A DNA stretch of 64,000 nt from assembly GCF_054482525.1 (NCBI RefSeq), contig NZ_CM137006.1, one strand, 5' to 3'. The notes below the pieces were generated by a model. The model was not told where the DNA came from. It saw only the letters and a program-made list of their open reading frames with translations, and made no database searches. How positions within the stretch are numbered: position 1 is the first letter of the stretch; every line of letters begins with the position of its first letter. The position numbers and the translations under genes were made by a program. Shown piece by piece: positions 1 to 7,694 of the stretch.

Positions 1-1
1 C

Positions 2-268
2 AATACTCAGAAAATTTTCCGCTGGGTGGAGAAAGACACCCCTGATGCGGTTAAAAAAATTCAGGCGTTGTTACCAGCTATCGAAAAAGCAATGCCACCT
101 CTGCTGGTGGCCCGAATGCGCAGTCATAGCTCAGCCTATTTTCGGGAACTAGTGGAGACGCGGGAACGACTGGTGAGAGACGCTGATGATTTTGTCGCAG
201 TGGCGATCGCTGGTTTCAACCAGATGAATCGTGGTGGCCCTGCAGGAAATATTGTGGCTGTGCATTGA
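2..268 (+). CDS. YdaT-like (CII-type) early regulatory protein, C-terminal part; 5' end outside window
   Basis: Frame is open from the window edge (NTQKIFRWVEKD...) to the stop at 266-268. The KIQALLPAIEK block and the ...NIVAVH tail recall the Rac YdaT family (from memory, not aligned). It lies directly upstream of the replication gene. Confidence 0.5.
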   Translation, partial: NTQKIFRWVEKDTPDAVKKIQALLPAIEKAMPPLLVARMRSHSSAYFRELVETRERLVRDADDFVAVAIAGFNQMNRGGPAGNIVAVH

Positions 269-339
269 CTCGCAATATTCATACCGGATCACTTCCGGCA
301 ATTTGTGAGTAAAAAGATTCGGTATCAAAAGAGGTGAGT

Positions 340-1410
340 ATGGCTAACGCCTGGCTCAGATTATGGCATGACATGCCAAATGACCCTAAGTGGCGAACAA
401 TTGCCAGGGTGTCAGGGCAGCCAATTGCAACAGTGATGGCAGTGTATATCCACCTCCTGGTGAGCGCGTCACGAAATGTCACGCGAGGTCACATTGATGT
501 CACGACAGAAGATTTGGCAAGTGCGCTCGACGTGACAGAAGAGGTAATTGATTCAATTTTGCAGACGATGCAGGGGCGGGTACTTGATGGTGATTTAATC
601 ACTGGATGGGAAAAACGCCAGGTGCTTAAAGAGGACAACGGCAATATTTCGCAAACCGCAAAATCTCCTGCAGAGCGCAAGAGGGCGCAGCGAGAGAGGG
701 AAAGAAAGCGGGAACAAAATGGCGATTGTCACGGCGCGTCACGAAATGTCACGCACATGTCACGACGAGTCACGACAGATAAAGATACAGATAAAGATAC
801 AGATCAAGAAGATCAAAACACTATGGTCCATGGCGTAAAAAACGCCACGAACCAGGCAGGGGATGTTCAGACCGTCAATCCTGGTCAGCCAGCAGGCACG
901 ACACCGGAAGCCGATTCAGCGTATGCGCTGAAAGCCGATTCGGGCGCTGTGCAGCAGGTGATGACCGCAAGGCCGGAGCAATCACACCAACTGCAGCAGC
1001 CTGAAGCCGATTCCGCCATTCAGCGGGAAGCCGATCGGGTAGTCCCGGAAAGCACCGGGCAGTCTGTGGGACGAGTGGATTATCCGGATGTGTTCGAACA
1101 GGTCTGGCGGGAGTACCCGTTGCGTGCTGGGGCAAACCCGAAGAAATCCGCTTTCAGTGCTTGGAAGGCCAGATTACGCGAGGGGGTGCCACCAGAGGCC
1201 ATGCTGGATGGCGTGAGGCGTTACGCAAGATACTTGGCGGCTACCGGGAAAACGGGAACGGAATTTGTTCAGCGAGCGACGACGTTTTTTGGACCGGATC
1301 GGAATTTTGAGAACCCCTGGTTGCTCCCGGTAAGCGGCACGAACAACCAGCGTTGTGTGAATCATATTTCTGAACCGGATAACGAAATTCCGCCGGGCTT
1401 CAGGGGGTAA
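340..1410 (+). CDS. phage replication initiator / replisome-organizer-like protein containing the origin repeats
   Basis: ORF track gives 334..1410. The ATG at 340 follows AAGAGG by 6 nt. The N-terminus MANAWLRLWHDMPNDPKWR is typical of lambdoid replication proteins. Iteron clusters lie inside the gene, as in lambda O. Confidence 0.65.
   Translation: MANAWLRLWHDMPNDPKWRTIARVSGQPIATVMAVYIHLLVSASRNVTRGHIDVTTEDLASALDVTEEVIDSILQTMQGRVLDGDLITGWEKRQVLKEDNGNISQTAKSPAERKRAQRERERKREQNGDCHGASRNVTHMSRRVTTDKDTDKDTDQEDQNTMVHGVKNATNQAGDVQTVNPGQPAGTTPEADSAYALKADSGAVQQVMTARPEQSHQLQQPEADSAIQREADRVVPESTGQSVGRVDYPDVFEQVWREYPLRAGANPKKSAFSAWKARLREGVPPEAMLDGVRRYARYLAATGKTGTEFVQRATTFFGPDRNFENPWLLPVSGTNNQRCVNHISEPDNEIPPGFRG
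466..506. repeat. iteron cluster 1: GTCAC(G) motifs at 468, 478, 488, 499 (10-11 bp phasing)
   Basis: The exact 19-mer GCGTCACGAAATGTCACGC at 466-484 is repeated at 736-754. An inverted CGTGAC lies at 531-536. Confidence 0.7.
728..776. repeat. iteron cluster 2: GTCACG motifs at 728, 738, 748, 759, 769 (10-11 bp phasing)
   Basis: Contains the second copy of the 19-mer (736-754), followed by GTCACGACGAGTCACGAC. Confidence 0.7.
778..819. repeat. AT-rich tandem repeat next to the iterons (possible unwinding element)
   Basis: GATAAAGATACA occurs twice (778-789, 790-801). It is followed by GATCAAGAA and GATCAAAAC, giving two GATC sites at 802 and 811. Confidence 0.55.
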
Positions 1411-1450
1411 GTGTTAATTTCTGGTCATGAGGTAATTTTCAGGAGGGCTT

Positions 1451-1876
1451 GTGGCAAAAGTTTTTACACAAGAAGAGCGGGAAAAAATTAAAGGGCAGGT
1501 TGTTGAACTTGTACGTCTGAGCGGTCGCGAGACGTTGCGGCAACTGGAAGCCAGGACAGGTGCGACAAGATATCTGATGAGTGTTCTCGCCAGAGAGCTG
1601 GTTGCCAGTGGCGATGTATACAACTCTGGTTACGGGTTATTCCCGTCTGAACAGGCGCGTAAGGACTGGCAAAATGCTCGCAAAAAACTCTCAAGGGCAA
1701 AGGTGAAGAAACCTGCAGTGGTTGATCCGGACCTTATCTGGTCGTTACCAGACGGCGAAATACGCCGCTACGACAGGCGCCTGAATATAATCTGTCGCGA
1801 GTGCCGGAAGAGCGAAGCTATGCAGCGTGTACTGGCATTTTATCAAGGAAATGTTAGGTATTTTAGACGTTACTAG
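1451..1876 (+). CDS. early-region protein, possibly DUF977/YdaW-like with an N-terminal winged-helix (family call uncertain)
   Basis: 141-aa ORF with a GTG start 8 nt after AGGAGGG. It occupies the position that ydaW holds in Rac-type early operons. No AAA/helicase-loader motifs are visible. Confidence 0.55.
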   Translation: MAKVFTQEEREKIKGQVVELVRLSGRETLRQLEARTGATRYLMSVLARELVASGDVYNSGYGLFPSEQARKDWQNARKKLSRAKVKKPAVVDPDLIWSLPDGEIRRYDRRLNIICRECRKSEAMQRVLAFYQGNVRYFRRY

Positions 1877-2029
1877 ATTAAAGAGCATTAGTTCAGATGT
1901 GAATTGACATTTTCATGGCGCAGGGTAGAGCCAGCGTGGTTGTCCGCTTTGCGTCAAAACCAGATATTACCAGATTTAGACATATATTCCCGATAGACCT
2001 GCTCTGATGCTACACTCTGTGCTATTTTC

Positions 2030-2716
2030 ATGACCCCAATAAAAATATTTATGACTATTGCTGATTTCAAACGGCCTAAATTGGAGCTCCCAAACGGGGC
2101 AAACAAACTACTACTGCACTCTTGCTGTGCTCCATGTTCCGGTGAAGTGATGGAGGCGCTTCAGGCCTCGGGAATCGACTACACCATCTTTTTCTACAAC
2201 CCGAACATTCATCCTCAGAAAGAGTATTTAATTCGTAAGGATGAAAATATTCGCTTTGCTGAACAACACGGCGTGCCGTTTATCGATGCTGATTACGACA
2301 CCGACAACTGGTTTGAACGTGCCAAAGGAATGGAATGGGAGCCTGAGAGGGGGATCCGTTGTACCATGTGTTTTGACATGCGTTTTGAGCGGACAGCGTT
2401 GTACGCTGCTGAAAATGGTTTCAGTGTGATCAGCAGTTCACTGGGCATTTCACGCTGGAAAAATATGCAGCAGGTTAACGAGTGTGGGCGGCGAGCTGTT
2501 GCGCATTATCCGGGTATGGTGTACTGGGATTATAACTGGCGCAAGCAGGGCGGCTCGTCCCGTATGATTGAAATCAGCAAGCGCGAAAAATTCTATCAGC
2601 AGGAATATTGTGGCTGTGTGTATTCTCTGCGCGATACCAATCTACACCGCAAATCTCAGGGACGCCCTCTTATCAAAATTGGCCAACTCCACTACGGAAA
2701 AGAAGAGAAGGAGTGA
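2030..2716 (+). CDS. queH: QueH-family (DUF208) epoxyqueuosine reductase homologue, prophage moron
   Basis: Shows the cysteine motifs [18 protein letters not shown] and QEYCGCVYS in the order characteristic of DUF208/QueH. An alternative start is the ATG at 2051. A 150-bp intergenic region with promoter-like TTGACA (1905-1910) lies upstream. Confidence 0.75.
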
Positions 2717-2748
2717 TTTTATGGATCACCTTTCTGATTGATTTTATA

Positions 2749-2777
2749 TTGGCGAGGTAACGGGAGTTAAGTAGAAT
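2749..2777 (+). promoter_or_regulatory. putative hok mRNA promoter (-35 TTGGCG, 17-bp spacer, -10 TAGAAT)
   Basis: The hexamers were read directly. The downstream leader GGGTGCTTGAGGCTATCTGTCTCAGGCATGA resembles the 5' end of hok-family mRNAs. Confidence 0.45.
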
Positions 2778-2833
2778 GGCTGCGGGTGCTTGAGGCTATC
2801 TGTCTCAGGCATGAACACCAAAGGCAGATAGAG

Positions 2834-2904
2834 AAAAGCCCCAGTTAACATTACGCGTCCTGCAAGACGCTTAACATTAATCTGAGGCTCAATCTATGAA
2901 CGGC
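2834..2904 (-). ncRNA. sok: putative Sok-like antisense RNA (ends approximate)
   Basis: A minus-strand promoter is readable: TTGCCT (2939-2934), 17-bp spacer, TAACCT (2916-2911). The predicted RNA covers the mok start region. A long stem AGCCTCAG/CTGGGGCT is followed by CTTTTC. Confidence 0.4.
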
Positions 2905-3108
2905 AAATCTAGGTTAGCCTCTTACGTGCCGAAAGGCAAGGAGAAGCAGGCTATGAAGCAGCAAAAGGCGATGTTAATCGCCCTGATCGTCATCTGTTTA
3001 ACCGTCATTGTGACGGCACTGGTAACGAGGAAAGACCTCTGCGAGGTACGAATCCGAACCGGCCAGACGGAGGTCGCTGTCTTCACAGCTTACGAACCTG
3101 AGGAGTAA
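2896..3108 (+). CDS. mok: mok-like in-frame N-terminally extended reading frame of the hok toxin
   Basis: 70-aa ORF with the same architecture as MokC/HokC, i.e. an in-frame extension. Confidence 0.55.
   Translation: MNGKSRLASYVPKGKEKQAMKQQKAMLIALIVICLTVIVTALVTRKDLCEVRIRTGQTEVAVFTAYEPEE
2953..3108 (+). CDS. hok: Hok/Gef-family type I membrane toxin (51 aa)
   Basis: MKQQKAMLIALIVICLTVIVTALVTRKDLCEVRIRTGQTEVAVFTAYEPEE is close to HokC/Gef as recalled from memory. Confidence 0.85.
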   Translation: MKQQKAMLIALIVICLTVIVTALVTRKDLCEVRIRTGQTEVAVFTAYEPEE

Positions 3109-3177
3109 GAGACCTGGCGGGGGAGAAATCCCTCGCCACCTCTGATGTGTCAGGCATCCTCAACGCACCCGCACTTA

Positions 3178-3198
3178 ACCCGCTTCGGCGTTTTTTCC
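3178..3198 (+). terminator. degenerate terminator copy at the hok mRNA 3' end (ACCCGCTTCGGCG-TTTTTTCC)
   Basis: Only a 3-bp stem remains. It matches the intact terminator at 3843-3868 apart from a 2-3 nt deletion. Confidence 0.3.
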
Positions 3199-3251
3199 GT
3201 TGATTAACTCTAGTTATTAGAGAACCGAACTTTTATTGATGGGGCAGGGAG

Positions 3252-3644
3252 ATGAAGAAACTTGTTTTAGTCGCAGGTGTAATGATTGCAACAGTAATGT
3301 TGGGAGGGTGTGCAGCAAAGATCGATCCAGCGTTGAAAGCAGAAGCAATGAAGCCACTAACATGTAATGATGAAAAGCAATGTGACTTTTATTGGAAACG
3401 AGCGCAATTCTGGTTGGCTAATAATTCCTCATGGAAAATTCAAACGGCGACAGACACGCTAATTTCCACTTATAATCCCTCTCCAAATAGTCCATTCCTC
3501 GCTTATCAAGTGAGTAAAATGCCAAATGAAGATGGATCCTCAAGAATTTTCATCAAGCCTTTTTGCGATAATATGTTTGGCTGTCAACCAAACCCCTATC
3601 AGGCAGTTGTTTCCTTTAAAAACTTCGTTAAAACAGGGCAGTAG
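3252..3644 (+). CDS. lipoprotein of unknown function (moron)
   Basis: Has a signal peptide with the lipobox LGG|C (MKKLVLVAGVMIATVMLGGCA). GGGAG lies 2 nt before the ATG. The segment is visibly AT-rich. Confidence 0.75.
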   Translation: MKKLVLVAGVMIATVMLGGCAAKIDPALKAEAMKPLTCNDEKQCDFYWKRAQFWLANNSSWKIQTATDTLISTYNPSPNSPFLAYQVSKMPNEDGSSRIFIKPFCDNMFGCQPNPYQAVVSFKNFVKTGQ

Positions 3645-3842
3645 TGTATAGCTTGGACGATAAATTATTAGTGAAAACGCCGTAAACCCTCACCCAATGT
3701 GGACTAAGTCTATCAAACATGACTGTGATGATTAGTCCGTAGTTGTTGTCTATGAAATCTGGATTGAGTCAGGGTTTAATCCAATAATTATTCTATCGTT
3801 CCTTTACAAGTCCGGTATATTACTTTCAGTTTGTTTTAGCAT

Positions 3843-3868
3843 ACCCGCTTCGGCGGGTTTTGTTTTTT
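3843..3868 (+). terminator. intrinsic terminator (ACCCGC-TTCG-GCGGGT + T-run)
   Basis: 6-bp GC stem, UUCG tetraloop and a T-rich tail. Confidence 0.75.
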
Positions 3869-3940
3869 CCTGGCATTCTGGTTTACAATTCGCACGCCAG
3901 CCTGAACAACTGGCACCTGCTGCGCCAGCAGAGACAACCG

Positions 3941-4219
3941 ATGGCGCACGATACCAAATTACACAATTCTGATGATTCTGCCGTCTTTGCCAGCAGGCAC
4001 GGGCGGCGTTCCCGCACTTTCAAATCTGACTGGTTCCAGCATGACCCATGTACTGAAGAACAGGCCGAATGGCTAATTCATAACTATCGCAGACGCGGAT
4101 ACGAGATTAAGAAAGCCCTCAGCCTCGATTATCGTCACTGGATAATCTATGTCAGGCTCCCTTATTCCGAACGCCCACCGCGCCCATCCCGCACATACCA
4201 GCAACGGATCTGGAGGTAA
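3941..4219 (+). CDS. hypothetical NinR-region protein (92 aa)
   Basis: The ORF track start at 3860 (TTG) lies inside the terminator, so the ATG at 3941 is preferred. The stop TAA at 4217-4219 abuts the next gene's GTG. Confidence 0.5.
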   Translation: MAHDTKLHNSDDSAVFASRHGRRSRTFKSDWFQHDPCTEEQAEWLIHNYRRRGYEIKKALSLDYRHWIIYVRLPYSERPPRPSRTYQQRIWR

Positions 4220-4220
4220 C

Positions 4221-5270
4221 GTGCGGATATTACTTCGACCTGTTCTGGTACCGGAACTCGGGCTGGTGGTCCTTAGGCCGGGCCGTGAATCCATGCAAGT
4301 ATTTCATAACCCTCGAGTGCTGGTGGAGCCTGAACCGAAAAGCATGCGCGGTCTGCCGTCCGGAGTCGTCCCTGCCGTTCGCCAGCCGCTGGCGGAGGAT
4401 AAATCATTACTGCCATTTTTCAGCGATGAGCGGGTGATTCGTGCTGCTGGCGGCGCTGGGGCGCTGTCTGACTGGCTGTTGCGTCATGTCAAATCCTGCC
4501 AGTGGCCTCATGGTGACTATCATCACAGTGAAATCGTCATACATCGTTACGGTACCAGCGCGATGGTGTTGTGCTGGCACTGCGACAACCAGTTGCGTGA
4601 CCAGACATCCGAATCACTCGGGCAACTTGCTCATCAAAACCTGTCAGCATGGATGATTGACGTCATACGCCATGCAATGAATGGCACGCAGGAGCGGGAA
4701 TTGTCGCTGGCTGAATTATCTTGGTGGGCGGTCTGCAATCAGGTGGCGGACGCGCTTCCGGAGGCAGTATTACGTCGTTCTCTGGGGGTACGTGCGGAAA
4801 AAATCCGCTCCTTGTACCGCGAAAGCGACATCGTACCGGGAGAGCAGACCGCCACCAGCATACTGAAGCAGCGCACAAAAAATCTTGCGCCGTTGCCTCA
4901 TGCCCACCAGCAACAGAACCCACCACAGGAAAAGACGGTGGTATGCATCACCGTTGATCCGGAGTCTCCGGAATCTTTCATGAGGCGACCTAAACGTCGC
5001 CGTTGGCTAAATGAGAAATATACGCGCTGGGTGAAGACACAGCCGTGTGCGTGTTGTGGTCAGCCAGCCGACGATCCCCATCACCTGATTGGTCACGGTC
5101 AGGGAGGGATGGGAACAAAGGCCCACGATATTTTCACGCTACCGTTGTGCCGGGAACATCACAACGAACTTCATGCGGATCCGCTGGCGTTCGAAGAAAA
5201 GCATGGTTCCCAGGTTGATTTAATTTTTCGTTTTCTTGATCACGCCTTTGCAACCGGCGTGCTCGGGTAA
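4221..5270 (+). CDS. DUF968 (YdfU-like) protein with a C-terminal HNH-like Cys/His motif
   Basis: The GTG at 4221 follows GGAGGTAAC. The C-terminus reads CACCGQPADDPHHLIGHGQGGMGTKAHD...LCREHHNELH. The gene precedes rusA, as in Qin/Rac-type prophages. Confidence 0.7.
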   Translation: MRILLRPVLVPELGLVVLRPGRESMQVFHNPRVLVEPEPKSMRGLPSGVVPAVRQPLAEDKSLLPFFSDERVIRAAGGAGALSDWLLRHVKSCQWPHGDYHHSEIVIHRYGTSAMVLCWHCDNQLRDQTSESLGQLAHQNLSAWMIDVIRHAMNGTQERELSLAELSWWAVCNQVADALPEAVLRRSLGVRAEKIRSLYRESDIVPGEQTATSILKQRTKNLAPLPHAHQQQNPPQEKTVVCITVDPESPESFMRRPKRRRWLNEKYTRWVKTQPCACCGQPADDPHHLIGHGQGGMGTKAHDIFTLPLCREHHNELHADPLAFEEKHGSQVDLIFRFLDHAFATGVLG

Positions 5271-5282
5271 AAGAGGTTACTG

Positions 5283-5642
5283 ATGCGTATAGAGTTTGTT
5301 TTGCCTTATCCGCCGACGGTGAATACTTACTGGCGACGTCGTGGCAACACATATTTTGTATCAAAAGTCGGTGAGCGTTATCGCCGTGATGTGGCACTAA
5401 TTGTTCGCCAGCAGCGGTTGAAATTAAACCTGTCCGGAAGGCTGGCAATAAAAATTATTGCAGAGCCACCGGATAAGCGCCGCCGCGACCTGGACAATAT
5501 CCTGAAGGCACCACTGGATGCGCTGACGCATGCCGGACTTCTCATAGACGACGAGCAGTTTGATGAAATCAATATTGTGCGCGGACTGCCTGTTCCTGGT
5601 GGTCGGCTGGGGATAAAAATCACAGAACTGGAGTGCGCATGA
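5283..5642 (+). CDS. rusA: RusA Holliday-junction resolvase
   Basis: Motifs PPTVNTYW and PDKRRRDLDNILKAPLDALTHAGLLIDDEQ match RusA. Confidence 0.85.
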   Translation: MRIEFVLPYPPTVNTYWRRRGNTYFVSKVGERYRRDVALIVRQQRLKLNLSGRLAIKIIAEPPDKRRRDLDNILKAPLDALTHAGLLIDDEQFDEINIVRGLPVPGGRLGIKITELECA

Positions 5643-6328
5643 ATAACCAGTATTTACAGTTTGTGCGTGAGCAGCTCATTATCGCCACCGCTGATTTGAG
5701 TGGGGCAACAAAAGGTCAGCTTGAAGCCTGGCAAGAGAATGCCATGTTCGATACAGGGCGTTACAGGCGAAAAAAAATCCGGTACCGCGATGAAGTGACT
5801 GGAAAAATGATAACGCGGGATAATCCACCAATCCCGGGAAAGCAATCGCTGGCGAAGGGGACGTCAATTCCTCTGGTCAGTCCGGTTGAGTTTTCGACAT
5901 CATCGTGGCGGCGGGCTGTTTTGTCTCTTGAAGAACATCATAAAGCCTGGTTGTTGTGGTGTTACAGCGGGAGTATTTGTTGGGAATATCAGATCGCGAT
6001 AACACAGTGGGCGTGGAATGAATTTAATACTCAATCCGGTACCAGAAAAATTGCAGGGAAAACGCAGGAACGCCTGAAAAAATTAATCTGGCTGGCGGCG
6101 CAGGCAGTAAAAGCAGAACTTTTTGGTGGGGAAGGTTATGAATACCAGGAGCTGGCATTACTGGCGGGAGTGACAACTAAAAACTGGTCCAAAACATTTA
6201 CTCGTCACTGGGTTGCAATGAAACACATTTTTCACCGACTTGATAGTGAGGCTTTATTGTTTGTAATGAGAACACGTTCAAAACAAAAGGCGGCATTTTC
6301 AAAGCAAAGTATTGCAAAAGTAGATTGA
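5639..6328 (+). CDS. late-gene antiterminator Q (QuuQ/phage-82 type)
   Basis: The ATG at 5639 overlaps the rusA stop (ATGA). Length and position are right for Q: after rusA and before pR'-tR', the tRNAs and the lysis genes. Confidence 0.7.
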   Translation: MNNQYLQFVREQLIIATADLSGATKGQLEAWQENAMFDTGRYRRKKIRYRDEVTGKMITRDNPPIPGKQSLAKGTSIPLVSPVEFSTSSWRRAVLSLEEHHKAWLLWCYSGSICWEYQIAITQWAWNEFNTQSGTRKIAGKTQERLKKLIWLAAQAVKAELFGGEGYEYQELALLAGVTTKNWSKTFTRHWVAMKHIFHRLDSEALLFVMRTRSKQKAAFSKQSIAKVD

Positions 6329-6522: not shown

Positions 6523-6598
6523 GGCCCTTTAGCTCAGTGGTGAGAGCGAGCGACTCATAATCGCCAGGTCGCTGGTTCAAATCCAGCAAGGGCCACCA
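6523..6598 (+). tRNA. ileZ: tRNA-Ile2 type (anticodon CAT, ileX/ileZ-like)
   Basis: Cloverleaf is readable. CAT lies at 6556-6558. The sequence is very close to E. coli ileX as recalled, and CCA is encoded. Confidence 0.8.
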
Positions 6599-6599
6599 G

Positions 6600-6676
6600 C
6601 CGCCACTAGCTCATCAGGAAAGAGCGTCAACCCTTTAAGTTGAGTGTGCGAGGTTCGAGTCCCCGGTGGCGGTCCA
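6600..6676 (+). tRNA. noncanonical tRNA-like gene: anticodon loop CCTTTAA (nominal UUU, C at position 33), C1-G72, U73
   Basis: Acceptor stem CCGCCAC/GTGGCGG is 7/7. D stem is GCTC/GAGC. Anticodon stem TCAAC/GTTGA is 5/5. T stem CGAGG/CCCCG has one A-C mismatch. The T loop is TTCGAGT and CCA is encoded. Confidence 0.6.
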
Positions 6677-6678
6677 GT

Positions 6679-6754
<76 letters not shown>

Positions 6755-6757
6755 TAT

Positions 6758-6832
<75 letters not shown>

Positions 6833-7343: not shown

Positions 7344-7694
7344 ATGACTCAAAACTATGAACTGATTGTGAAAGGGATCCGCAATTTTGAGAATAAAGTT
7401 ACGGTAACTTTAGCGTTACGGGACAAAAAACGCTTTGACGGCGAAATTTTTGACCTGGACATCTCGCTGGACCGTGTTGAAGGTGCCGCGCTGGAGTTTT
7501 ATGAGGCAGCAGCCAGAAGGAGCATCAGACAGGTCTTCCTGGATGTTGCTGCCGGGTTATGTGAAGGGGATGAGCAGTCGCCGGAAAAGCGCCCCGTAAT
7601 TTTAGAGGCGCAGAATGTGTGGATAACCTACAAAGGAAAGCTACCAGGAAGAATTACTGGTTCTCTGAAGACTCCTCCGGAATCACAACCTTAA
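7344..7694 (+). CDS. DUF1327 (YdfR-like) protein between holin and endolysin
   Basis: The N-terminal two thirds (YELIVKGIRNFENKVTVT...FDGEIFDLD...VEGAALEFYEAAARRS) resemble Qin YdfR as recalled. Confidence 0.65.
   Translation: MTQNYELIVKGIRNFENKVTVTLALRDKKRFDGEIFDLDISLDRVEGAALEFYEAAARRSIRQVFLDVAAGLCEGDEQSPEKRPVILEAQNVWITYKGKLPGRITGSLKTPPESQP

Follow-up and report, generated by a model that had tools for sequence, protein, structure and literature searches.

A candidate replication origin inside the initiator gene of a common Escherichia coli prophage, and a DnaT-like tail that may connect it to the host helicase

Introduction

Phage lambda carries its origin of replication within the gene of its own initiator, O, where direct repeats for the N-terminal domain of the protein are followed by an A+T-rich stretch and then by an inverted repeat; the N-terminal half of the protein and the repeats form one mosaic unit, the C-terminal half is matched to the helicase loader, and the gene occupies the slot after cII. 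What appears to be the same organisation is seen in a replication gene at 340-1410 of a 64,000-nucleotide stretch of contig NZ_CM137006.1 (assembly GCF_054482525.1; this whole stretch is referred to as the window). The gene belongs to the early-right part of a lambdoid Escherichia coli prophage. It is likely that 466-855 is the replication origin of this prophage, placed inside its own initiator gene, with the helicase brought in by way of a DnaT-like tail at the end of the initiator. That the origin is bound by its own initiator is very probable, and that the tail links the initiator to DnaC-type helicase loading is a suggestion we would place a little below an even call.

The first-pass annotation of this DNA had described it as a mirror of lambda ori. 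This holds for an origin within the initiator gene and for two blocks of repeats ~260 base pairs (bp) apart, both of which have comparative support, but it does not hold for the parts used, as there is no O homologue and there are no 19-bp dyad iterons. The N-terminal domain is not Phage_rep_O (PF04492), and the repeats have cores of ~6 bp every 10-11 bp without a dyad, whereas lambda has four 19-bp dyad iterons. One of the two blocks is inside the sequence coding for the DNA-binding domain, in contrast to the single array in the inter-domain linker of lambda, and in place of a P gene there is a DUF977 gene next to an initiator whose C-terminus bears the DnaT-type tail.

Another initiator known to bind repeats inside its own gene is G38P, the replisome organiser of Bacillus phage SPP1, which does so at oriL (PMC5615212). 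The present initiator has been given the NCBI name 'phage replisome organizer' and has a weak N-terminal similarity to TIGR01714 (15 bits against a cut-off of 50), yet SPP1 encodes a loader, G39P, and a helicase, G40P, and this prophage encodes neither. Two arrays of initiator-binding repeats near a rep gene, which may pair or loop, are also found at incC and incA of P1. In contrast to iteron plasmids of that type, both arrays here lie within coding sequence, the repeats are far shorter, and no DnaA box (with up to one mismatch) was found in 1-5600.

At its other end the initiator resembles a host protein, E. coli DnaT, with which the last ~19 residues are shared, and some phage initiators carry the whole C-terminal domain of DnaT (PF17948). 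In sister phages the gene with the tail and a DnaC paralogue are 3-7 nucleotides apart and are collinear with the dnaT-dnaC operon. The initiator differs from DnaT in lacking both the N-terminal oligomerisation domain and the acidic PriB-binding linker, its N-terminus being an unrelated DNA-binding domain, and it is proposed to serve a sequence-specific origin, whereas DnaT serves abandoned forks. DopC of the Cellvibrionales joins an O-like N-terminus to a C-terminal motif of DnaT (PMC5509034); DopC-DopE is a domesticated, chromosomal system with a P-like partner and no iterons, whereas here there are iterons and no loader gene.

Lambdoid and Stx phages with modules other than that of lambda (the Eru types, and the Rac type with YdaU and YdaV) use the same genomic slot and follow the same mosaic logic, and nothing is known on how the Eru modules replicate according to the authors who treat them (PMC8951638). 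In Shigella phage 75/02 Stx (Eru4) the initiator has the same C-terminal half and tail as this one and is accompanied by a DnaC-like gene, but its N-terminal domain and repeats differ, and the cassette of DnaC-like and DUF1627 genes is absent from the module described here. YdaU of Rac-SA53 differs in having another tail and a lambda-P-like loader. No earlier account of the origin, or of the tail as a peptide common to these proteins, came up in literature searches, although these covered one library and do not prove novelty.

Two blocks of iterons within the initiator gene

Block 1 is formed by four GTCAC(G/A) cores on the plus strand at 468, 478, 488 and 499 (span 468-504, spacings 10, 10 and 11), with the core at 488 reading GTCACA. 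Block 2, in the region coding for the linker of the protein, has five GTCACG cores on the same strand at 728, 738, 748, 759 and 769 (span 728-774, spacings 10, 10, 11 and 10), and it is this block that adjoins the unwinding-prone stretch. The 19-mer GCGTCACGAAATGTCACGC is present exactly at 466-484 and again at 736-754. All coordinates given in the first-pass annotation for the GTCAC cores, the 19-mer, the AT-rich tandem, the GATC sites and four copies of AAGCCGAT are exact to the base; its list did not contain a single inverted core (CGTGAC on the plus strand, with the iteron on the minus strand) at 531-536, ~30 bp past block 1.

Over the whole window GTCACG shows no enrichment, there being 31 sites where 28 are expected, and the clustering is entirely local, with nine of the 31 sites on both strands falling inside ~310 bp where 0.15 would be expected (Poisson P ~1e-13). 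When any non-trivial hexamer with at least four copies per 60 bp was looked for, this place alone was returned and no second repeat cluster was found in the 64 kb. The cores do not keep to one reading frame, those of block 1 being in frames 2, 0, 1 and 0 and those of block 2 in frames 1, 2, 0, 2 and 0.

Directly 3' of block 2 is an A+T-rich, A-skewed stretch at 775-823, a candidate DNA-unwinding element, with 28% G+C against ~53% for the gene. The segment 775-824 is 72% A+T, is the G+C minimum of the gene and has an A over T skew of 0.56 on the coding strand. Within it GATAAAGATACA is found twice in tandem at 778-801, followed by GATC at 802 and 811, and the sequence AGATAAAGA directly 3' of block 2 is highly conserved across genera. 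An imperfect inverted repeat of 31 nucleotides (13 pairs, loop of 5) follows directly at 824-854, where hairpins are weakly enriched at the equivalent place in relatives (Wilcoxon p 0.006); by analogy it may correspond to the palindrome beside lambda ori. Apart from this inverted repeat a scan for promoters and terminators gave background levels.

The four copies of AAGCCGAT, at 908, 932, 1004 and 1028, had also been listed as an element of the origin, which was not borne out. They lie two apiece within two imperfect direct repeats of 36 nucleotides on the plus strand (904-939 and 1000-1035, 75% identity), all share a single reading frame and are translated into (P)EADS-type repeats of the disordered linker. 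Among E. coli variants they are lost in whole in-frame units, they are found only with this C-terminal half, even where it is joined to a different N-terminus, and they are absent from other genera that retain the iterons, on which grounds they were rejected as origin elements and placed outside the conserved origin. A further motif, TTATCCACA, is found 28 times in the window with up to one mismatch where ~13 are expected, a number reached in none of 100 shuffles; it is exact once, at 7618-7626, and has no copy near the origin.

Conservation of the repeats across phages and prophages

With the N-terminal 129 residues of the initiator as a tblastn query, homologues were found in phages of Aeromonas (74% identity), Pseudomonas (73%) and Ralstonia (38%), in an uncultured freshwater phage (48%) and in cyanobacteria (32-36%), the last of which were left out of the comparison of layout. 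The Aeromonas and Pseudomonas phages have GTCAC cores at the matching gene nucleotides 129, 139, 149 and 160 and at about 388-430. The freshwater phage has the same layout with a core of GAACGC, and Ralstonia phage Firinga uses GCAACG instead. Inverted cores are present at gene nucleotides ~154-203 in the Aeromonas, Pseudomonas and Ralstonia homologues as well, and in all of the phage homologues compared (Aeromonas, Pseudomonas, freshwater and Ralstonia) a purine- or A-rich stretch of the AGATAAAGA type stands directly 3' of block 2.

A scan of bacterial reference genomes added 52 loci from gamma-, beta- and alpha-proteobacteria, with the two-block arrangement in about four-fifths of the complete genes. 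The core was GTCAC in 25 genes, AACGC or CGAAC in 12 and GTAAC in four, with a few others. Homologues from E. coli, Aeromonas, Pseudomonas, Bordetella, Ralstonia and others share the placement of the two blocks within the gene, with block 1 at gene nucleotides 129-160 in 25 homologues and block 2 conserved in diverged ones as three to five copies with a changed core. As the N-terminal domain diverges the core shifts from GTCACG to GAACGC, GCAACG or GTAACG, yet the layout is retained. Conservation of the repeats at the same gene positions in phages that share this protein, with a core that co-varies with the N-terminal domain, is the result on which the first-pass interpretation had been made to depend. 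On this distribution the layout in two blocks is an old one among proteobacterial phages.

In 23 non-redundant genes of the GTCAC type, 89% of third-codon positions are conserved within the cores compared with 55% elsewhere in the first 300 nucleotides (Mann-Whitney p 2.8e-6). Since the cores fall in all three frames, their third positions are conserved and the layout is kept while the core changes, the repeats are to be regarded as DNA elements and not as a repeated stretch of protein. What these comparisons show is selection on the DNA as such, which preserves the repeat arrays together with the inverted copy and the A-rich stretch beside them, and they lend strong support to the interpretation as an origin. 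The genes downstream vary between DnaC-like, lambda-P-like, DnaB-like and primase-helicase types, and as the N-terminal domain is the only constant neighbour of the repeats, domain and repeats are best seen as a co-evolving pair of protein and site.

It is hardly credible that the repeats arose as a side effect of a repeated peptide or a recent coding duplication and have no function at the DNA level, for although the 19-mer is in the same frame both times, encoding ASRNVT twice, and the linker is of low complexity, the cores within each block use three frames, their synonymous positions are selectively conserved and the layout persists from one class of Proteobacteria to another despite changes in the core sequence.

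Variants of the initiator in other E. coli (P0002, P0003, P0005, P0020, P0022 and P0068) have insertions and deletions exactly at the repeats within 466-1040. These include a gain in block 1 of seven residues, equal to two iterons, the loss of one DKDT unit, and the absence of 8 and 32 residues between copies of AAGCCGAT. P0020 is without the 3' portion of block 2 and without the A-rich stretch, for which reason it is possibly a dead replicon.

The initiator protein

The open reading frame (ORF) at 340-1410 on the plus strand has a ribosome-binding site, encodes 356 residues and matches phrog_3729, 'replication initiation protein' (E 2e-257); its counterpart in a 98.7% identical genome is annotated at equal extent. 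Neither Pfam nor NCBIfam gave a domain above cut-off for the protein, and PF04492 was not matched at E < 0.1, whereas other initiators that bear the tail do match it. The similarity to TIGR01714 is weak (E 0.016, 15.4 bits against a cut-off of 49.8), with residues 5-125 aligned end to end to positions 1-119 of the model.

In the AF2 model (mean pLDDT 56) a helical, winged-helix-like N-terminal domain of residues 1-~90 and a disordered linker of residues ~128-245 are followed by a helical C-terminal domain of residues ~246-332 (pLDDT 70-86) and a tail of lower confidence. A Foldseek search of the full-length model, most of which is disordered linker, against PDB gave nothing significant, the weak matches being to winged-helix regulators only. 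The C-terminal body could represent a DnaT-like domain that has diverged: hhalign against a DnaT-type alignment gave a weak and partly tail-driven match (70% probability, E 4e-5), and PF17948 is not matched in Pfam. Block 2, the A-rich stretch and the copies of AAGCCGAT are all encoded within the disordered linker. Block 1 encodes residues 43-56, a loop of the N-terminal domain with pLDDT <50 which is variable in length, and among E. coli variants the steps in its length are iteron-sized.

The residues that best separate N-terminal domains of the GTCAC type from those of the AACGC type are nearly all in this loop encoded by block 1 (475-492, residues 46-51; N46A, V47T, T48E and H51R), and no clear group-specific differences were found in the predicted recognition helix. 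As the differences are nearly all within the iteron-encoded loop, no clean recognition code can be read from them. A more speculative idea is that the loop (residues 46-51) might help to read the sequence that encodes it, although the difference in the loop could be trivial given that the DNA differs.

A DnaT-like tail in the absence of a loader gene

The first-pass annotation had seen no P- or DnaC-type motif in the gene after the initiator and had left the recruitment of the host helicase unclear. The first point was confirmed: the gene at 1451-1876, on the plus strand and of 141 residues, is a DUF977, LygF or 'Ren-like' gene (PF06163, E 8e-28; phrog_142), DUF977 is its only Pfam match, and it has no Walker or loader motif and no PF06992 fold. 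No match was found among PDB sequences. The homologue search returned only proteins of at least 86% identity and the AF2 alignment was accordingly shallow; in the resulting model the N-terminal half is a winged helix for which Foldseek gave only MarR and GntR DNA-binding domains (probability 0.97-1.0, E 0.04-0.1), with no loader-like fold or ATPase motif found. In the 98.7% identical prophage of strain 14EC020 there was likewise no helicase or loader and no PF06992 protein from int through to the tail genes. Judged by its gene content, the phage has neither a helicase nor a loader of its own. The notion that DUF977 is itself an unrecognised loader in place of P or DnaC, suggested by its slot directly after the initiator and by the way its DNA and the tail-coding segment travel as one mosaic block, has next to nothing to recommend it, as a 141-residue protein with a winged helix and no ATPase motif or loader-like fold is found downstream whether or not a DnaC-like cassette is inserted, and is absent from the modules of Aeromonas, Pseudomonas and Ralstonia.

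For the recruitment of the helicase a DnaT-type peptide at the C-terminus of the initiator may be a concrete lead. This tail, RCVNHISEPDNEIPPGFRG (residues 338-356, 1351-1407 on the plus strand), is the proposed docking peptide, and the ~19 residues common to initiator and DnaT are RxVNxVSxPDxxIPPGFRG. Residues 333-356 match DnaT 156-179 (NF002770, E 7e-4, a match limited to the last 24 residues), with RCVNHISEPDNEIPPGFRG aligned to RDVNTVSEPDSQIPPGFRG of E. coli and Klebsiella DnaT; the DnaT sequence used was checked against 9zbt_D. Against the extreme C-terminus of DnaT in PDB entries 6aep, 2ru8 and 9zbt the tail gave E 0.003-0.07 (0.003 for 6aep).

When viral contigs were scanned with the pattern PDxxIPPGFRG, 80 loci were found, in every one of which (80/80) the motif stands at the end of the ORF, followed by the stop codon. 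It is joined to at least 10 N-terminal clusters, including HTH_36, DUF1376, Phage_rep_O and the family of this initiator, and to at least five C-terminal body clusters, including the full DnaT domain PF17948 and Phg_2220_C, and is kept almost letter for letter across these unrelated bodies. A DnaC paralogue of the PRK12377 subfamily (311-325 bits on the DnaC model) begins at +3 or +7 past the tail in 41 of the 80 loci and is absent in 39, of which 34 have DUF977 at +41. Where the DnaC-like cassette is present it usually continues with a DUF1627 gene, as in phage 75/02 Stx, and DUF977 comes after the cassette, that is, DUF977 is found 3' of the initiator in either case. The cassette is optional, because the same types of initiator occur with and without it.

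The converse also holds: each of the 77 assessable DnaC-like genes of phages comes after an ORF whose product terminates in IPPGF(R/S)G. Among homologues of the N-terminal domain the tail is found only with a DnaC-like gene or with no loader (7/7): tails of the form P(P/D/A)GF accompany a DnaC-like gene in Aeromonas, Enterobacter and Sphingomonas, and stand without a loader in Escherichia/Shigella, Superficieibacter and Scandinavium, all Enterobacteriaceae. It is found in none of the 17 homologues with a lambda-P-like partner and in none of the four with a partner of helicase type. YdaU of Rac-SA53 has a DnaT-like body with a different, acidic and aromatic tail, and a lambda-P-like gene follows it. 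The type of loader is therefore tracked by the extreme C-terminus and not by the body.

DNA identity to the otherwise different phages HannyBb, mEp460_ev081 and PhiR42_1 starts abruptly at 1348 and runs through DUF977 to 1951; as it begins at the start of the tail-coding segment, that segment acts as a mosaic recombination joint. The initiator of Escherichia phage HannyBb itself (L003, 2440-2600) is O-like and unrelated to this one, it ends in the same DnaT-type tail, again with no loader, and in its linker five copies of the GGTCAAAATG type are followed by an A+T-rich stretch, which is the same logic of origin made from different parts.

Proposed mechanism and alternatives

It is proposed that the winged-helix-like N-terminal domain would oligomerise on the repeats along one face of the DNA helix, their cores being phased at one turn. 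Block 2, possibly bridged to block 1 ~260 bp away, would then strain and open the stretch of 28% G+C at 775-823, and the C-terminal domain with its 19-residue tail would couple the open complex to DnaB-DnaC of the host. Sister phages would instead supply a DnaC paralogue of their own, encoded directly after the tail. Extended to DnaT, the idea that this peptide is the handle by which a DNA-bound organiser recruits DnaB-DnaC is a tentative one, and on balance doubtful.

A number of points weigh against this mechanism. Firing of the origin, binding of the protein and unwinding are all deduced and not experimental, the confidence of the AF2 model is modest and Foldseek gave no significant match for the initiator. 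A minority of relatives have block 2 only. The counts that join tail and loader come from related, mostly enterobacterial sequences and, because of that relatedness, overstate the number of independent events, and more distant DnaC-like partners (L023, L024) are without the tail. For DnaT itself, a 2026 paper on the preprimosome proposes that the N-terminal domain, not the C-terminus, recruits DnaB/DnaC, and its cryo-electron microscopy structure has the C-terminal domain on PriA (PMC13377028). DnaT without residues 154-179 has a ~2.7-fold lower affinity for single-stranded DNA in vitro, with Kd going from 9.87 to 27.1 µM (PMC4132743). The unit docked in the preprimosome is that of residues 84-154 of the crystal structure, so that the tail is not shown at the interface (PMC13377028), and the recruitment of DnaB-DnaC by the preprimosome is called mechanistically unknown (PMC13377028, PMC4132743). 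No documented partner of DnaT residues 155-179 was found in the preprimosome paper, its supplement or related papers. As published work leaves the partner of the tail open, docking on PriA and plain binding of single-stranded DNA both stay as rivals to the proposal of a handle for DnaB-DnaC.

The reading as an origin could be right and the tail could nevertheless dock on PriA, with the initiator seeding a primosome of the PriA-PriB-DnaT type at the opened origin. The C-terminal domain of DnaT lies on a conserved hydrophobic surface of PriA in the cryo-electron microscopy preprimosome (PMC13377028), the tail, which is conserved in DnaT, has the hydrophobic sequence IPPGF, and PriA is present in every host involved, including Sphingomonas (L044). 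The docked unit is however without the tail, full-length DnaT of the host would still be required, and neither the strict association of the tail with phage DnaC paralogues (77/77) nor the swap of tails with a lambda-P-like loader would be explained. We regard docking on PriA as unlikely.

A role of the tail solely in the binding of single-stranded DNA or in cooperativity, with another surface of the C-terminal part contacting DnaB as in DnaA or plasmid Rep, is improbable. It would fit the behaviour of DnaT 84-153, which binds dT30 ~2.7-fold more weakly and less cooperatively than 84-179 (PMC4132743), and the weak hhalign match of the C-terminal body to the three-helix domain of DnaT. A generic peptide for single-stranded DNA should not, however, correlate with the type of loader gene, nor would its near letter-for-letter retention on at least five unrelated bodies be expected.

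It might also be that the repeat blocks, block 1 especially, are control sites for autoregulation, incompatibility or handcuffing, with replication starting elsewhere or only at block 2. Iteron plasmids have operator-type inverted repeats, which block 1 and its inverted copy resemble; block 1 lies within the coding sequence of the DNA-binding domain with the inverted copy nearby, and some relatives have only block 2. The conserved A-rich stretch is, however, always directly 3' of block 2, the standard arrangement of an origin, and the window holds no other repeat cluster. Control sites of this kind, to which we give a low probability, would in any case be compatible with an origin at block 2 and not opposed to it.

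The prophage region and its prevalence

Upstream of the initiator is a cII/YdaT-like gene (26-268), truncated by the start of the window. Past DUF977 the order is QueH, a Hok-type toxin, a Q-like gene, four tRNAs and then lysis and morphogenesis genes. The gene for epoxyqueuosine reductase QueH (PF02677, E 1e-65) is at 2030-2716, in a nin-like region 3' of the replication module that also holds an ORF for a hokD-type toxin at 2896-3108. The four tRNA genes (6523-6832, anticodons CAT, TTT, TGT and TCC) come directly after the Q-like ORF at 5633-6328; the first of them is Met according to ARAGORN and Ile in its RefSeq equivalent.

The replication module is very common in E. coli, its 2-kb region being covered to at least 80% in 1534 of 5426 complete genomes. 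In public records the initiator goes by the names 'hypothetical protein', 'phage replisome organizer', 'DnaT-like ssDNA-binding domain-containing protein', 'DNA replication protein O' and 'Primosomal protein I'.

Implications

A module that is this common is yet inconsistently annotated, and its origin is unmarked in the records. The map given here defines a minimal replicon, together with a natural series of variants in the specificity of repeats and protein. The DnaT-type tail suggests how a phage without a loader of its own could use the machinery of its host, and it offers work on replication restart a precise peptide that can be mutated. If the tail does act as a handle for DnaB-DnaC, the peptide would explain the handover from the PriA-PriB-DnaT preprimosome to DnaB-DnaC, and the enterobacterial dnaT-dnaC operon would appear to be descended from a phage module of initiator and loader.

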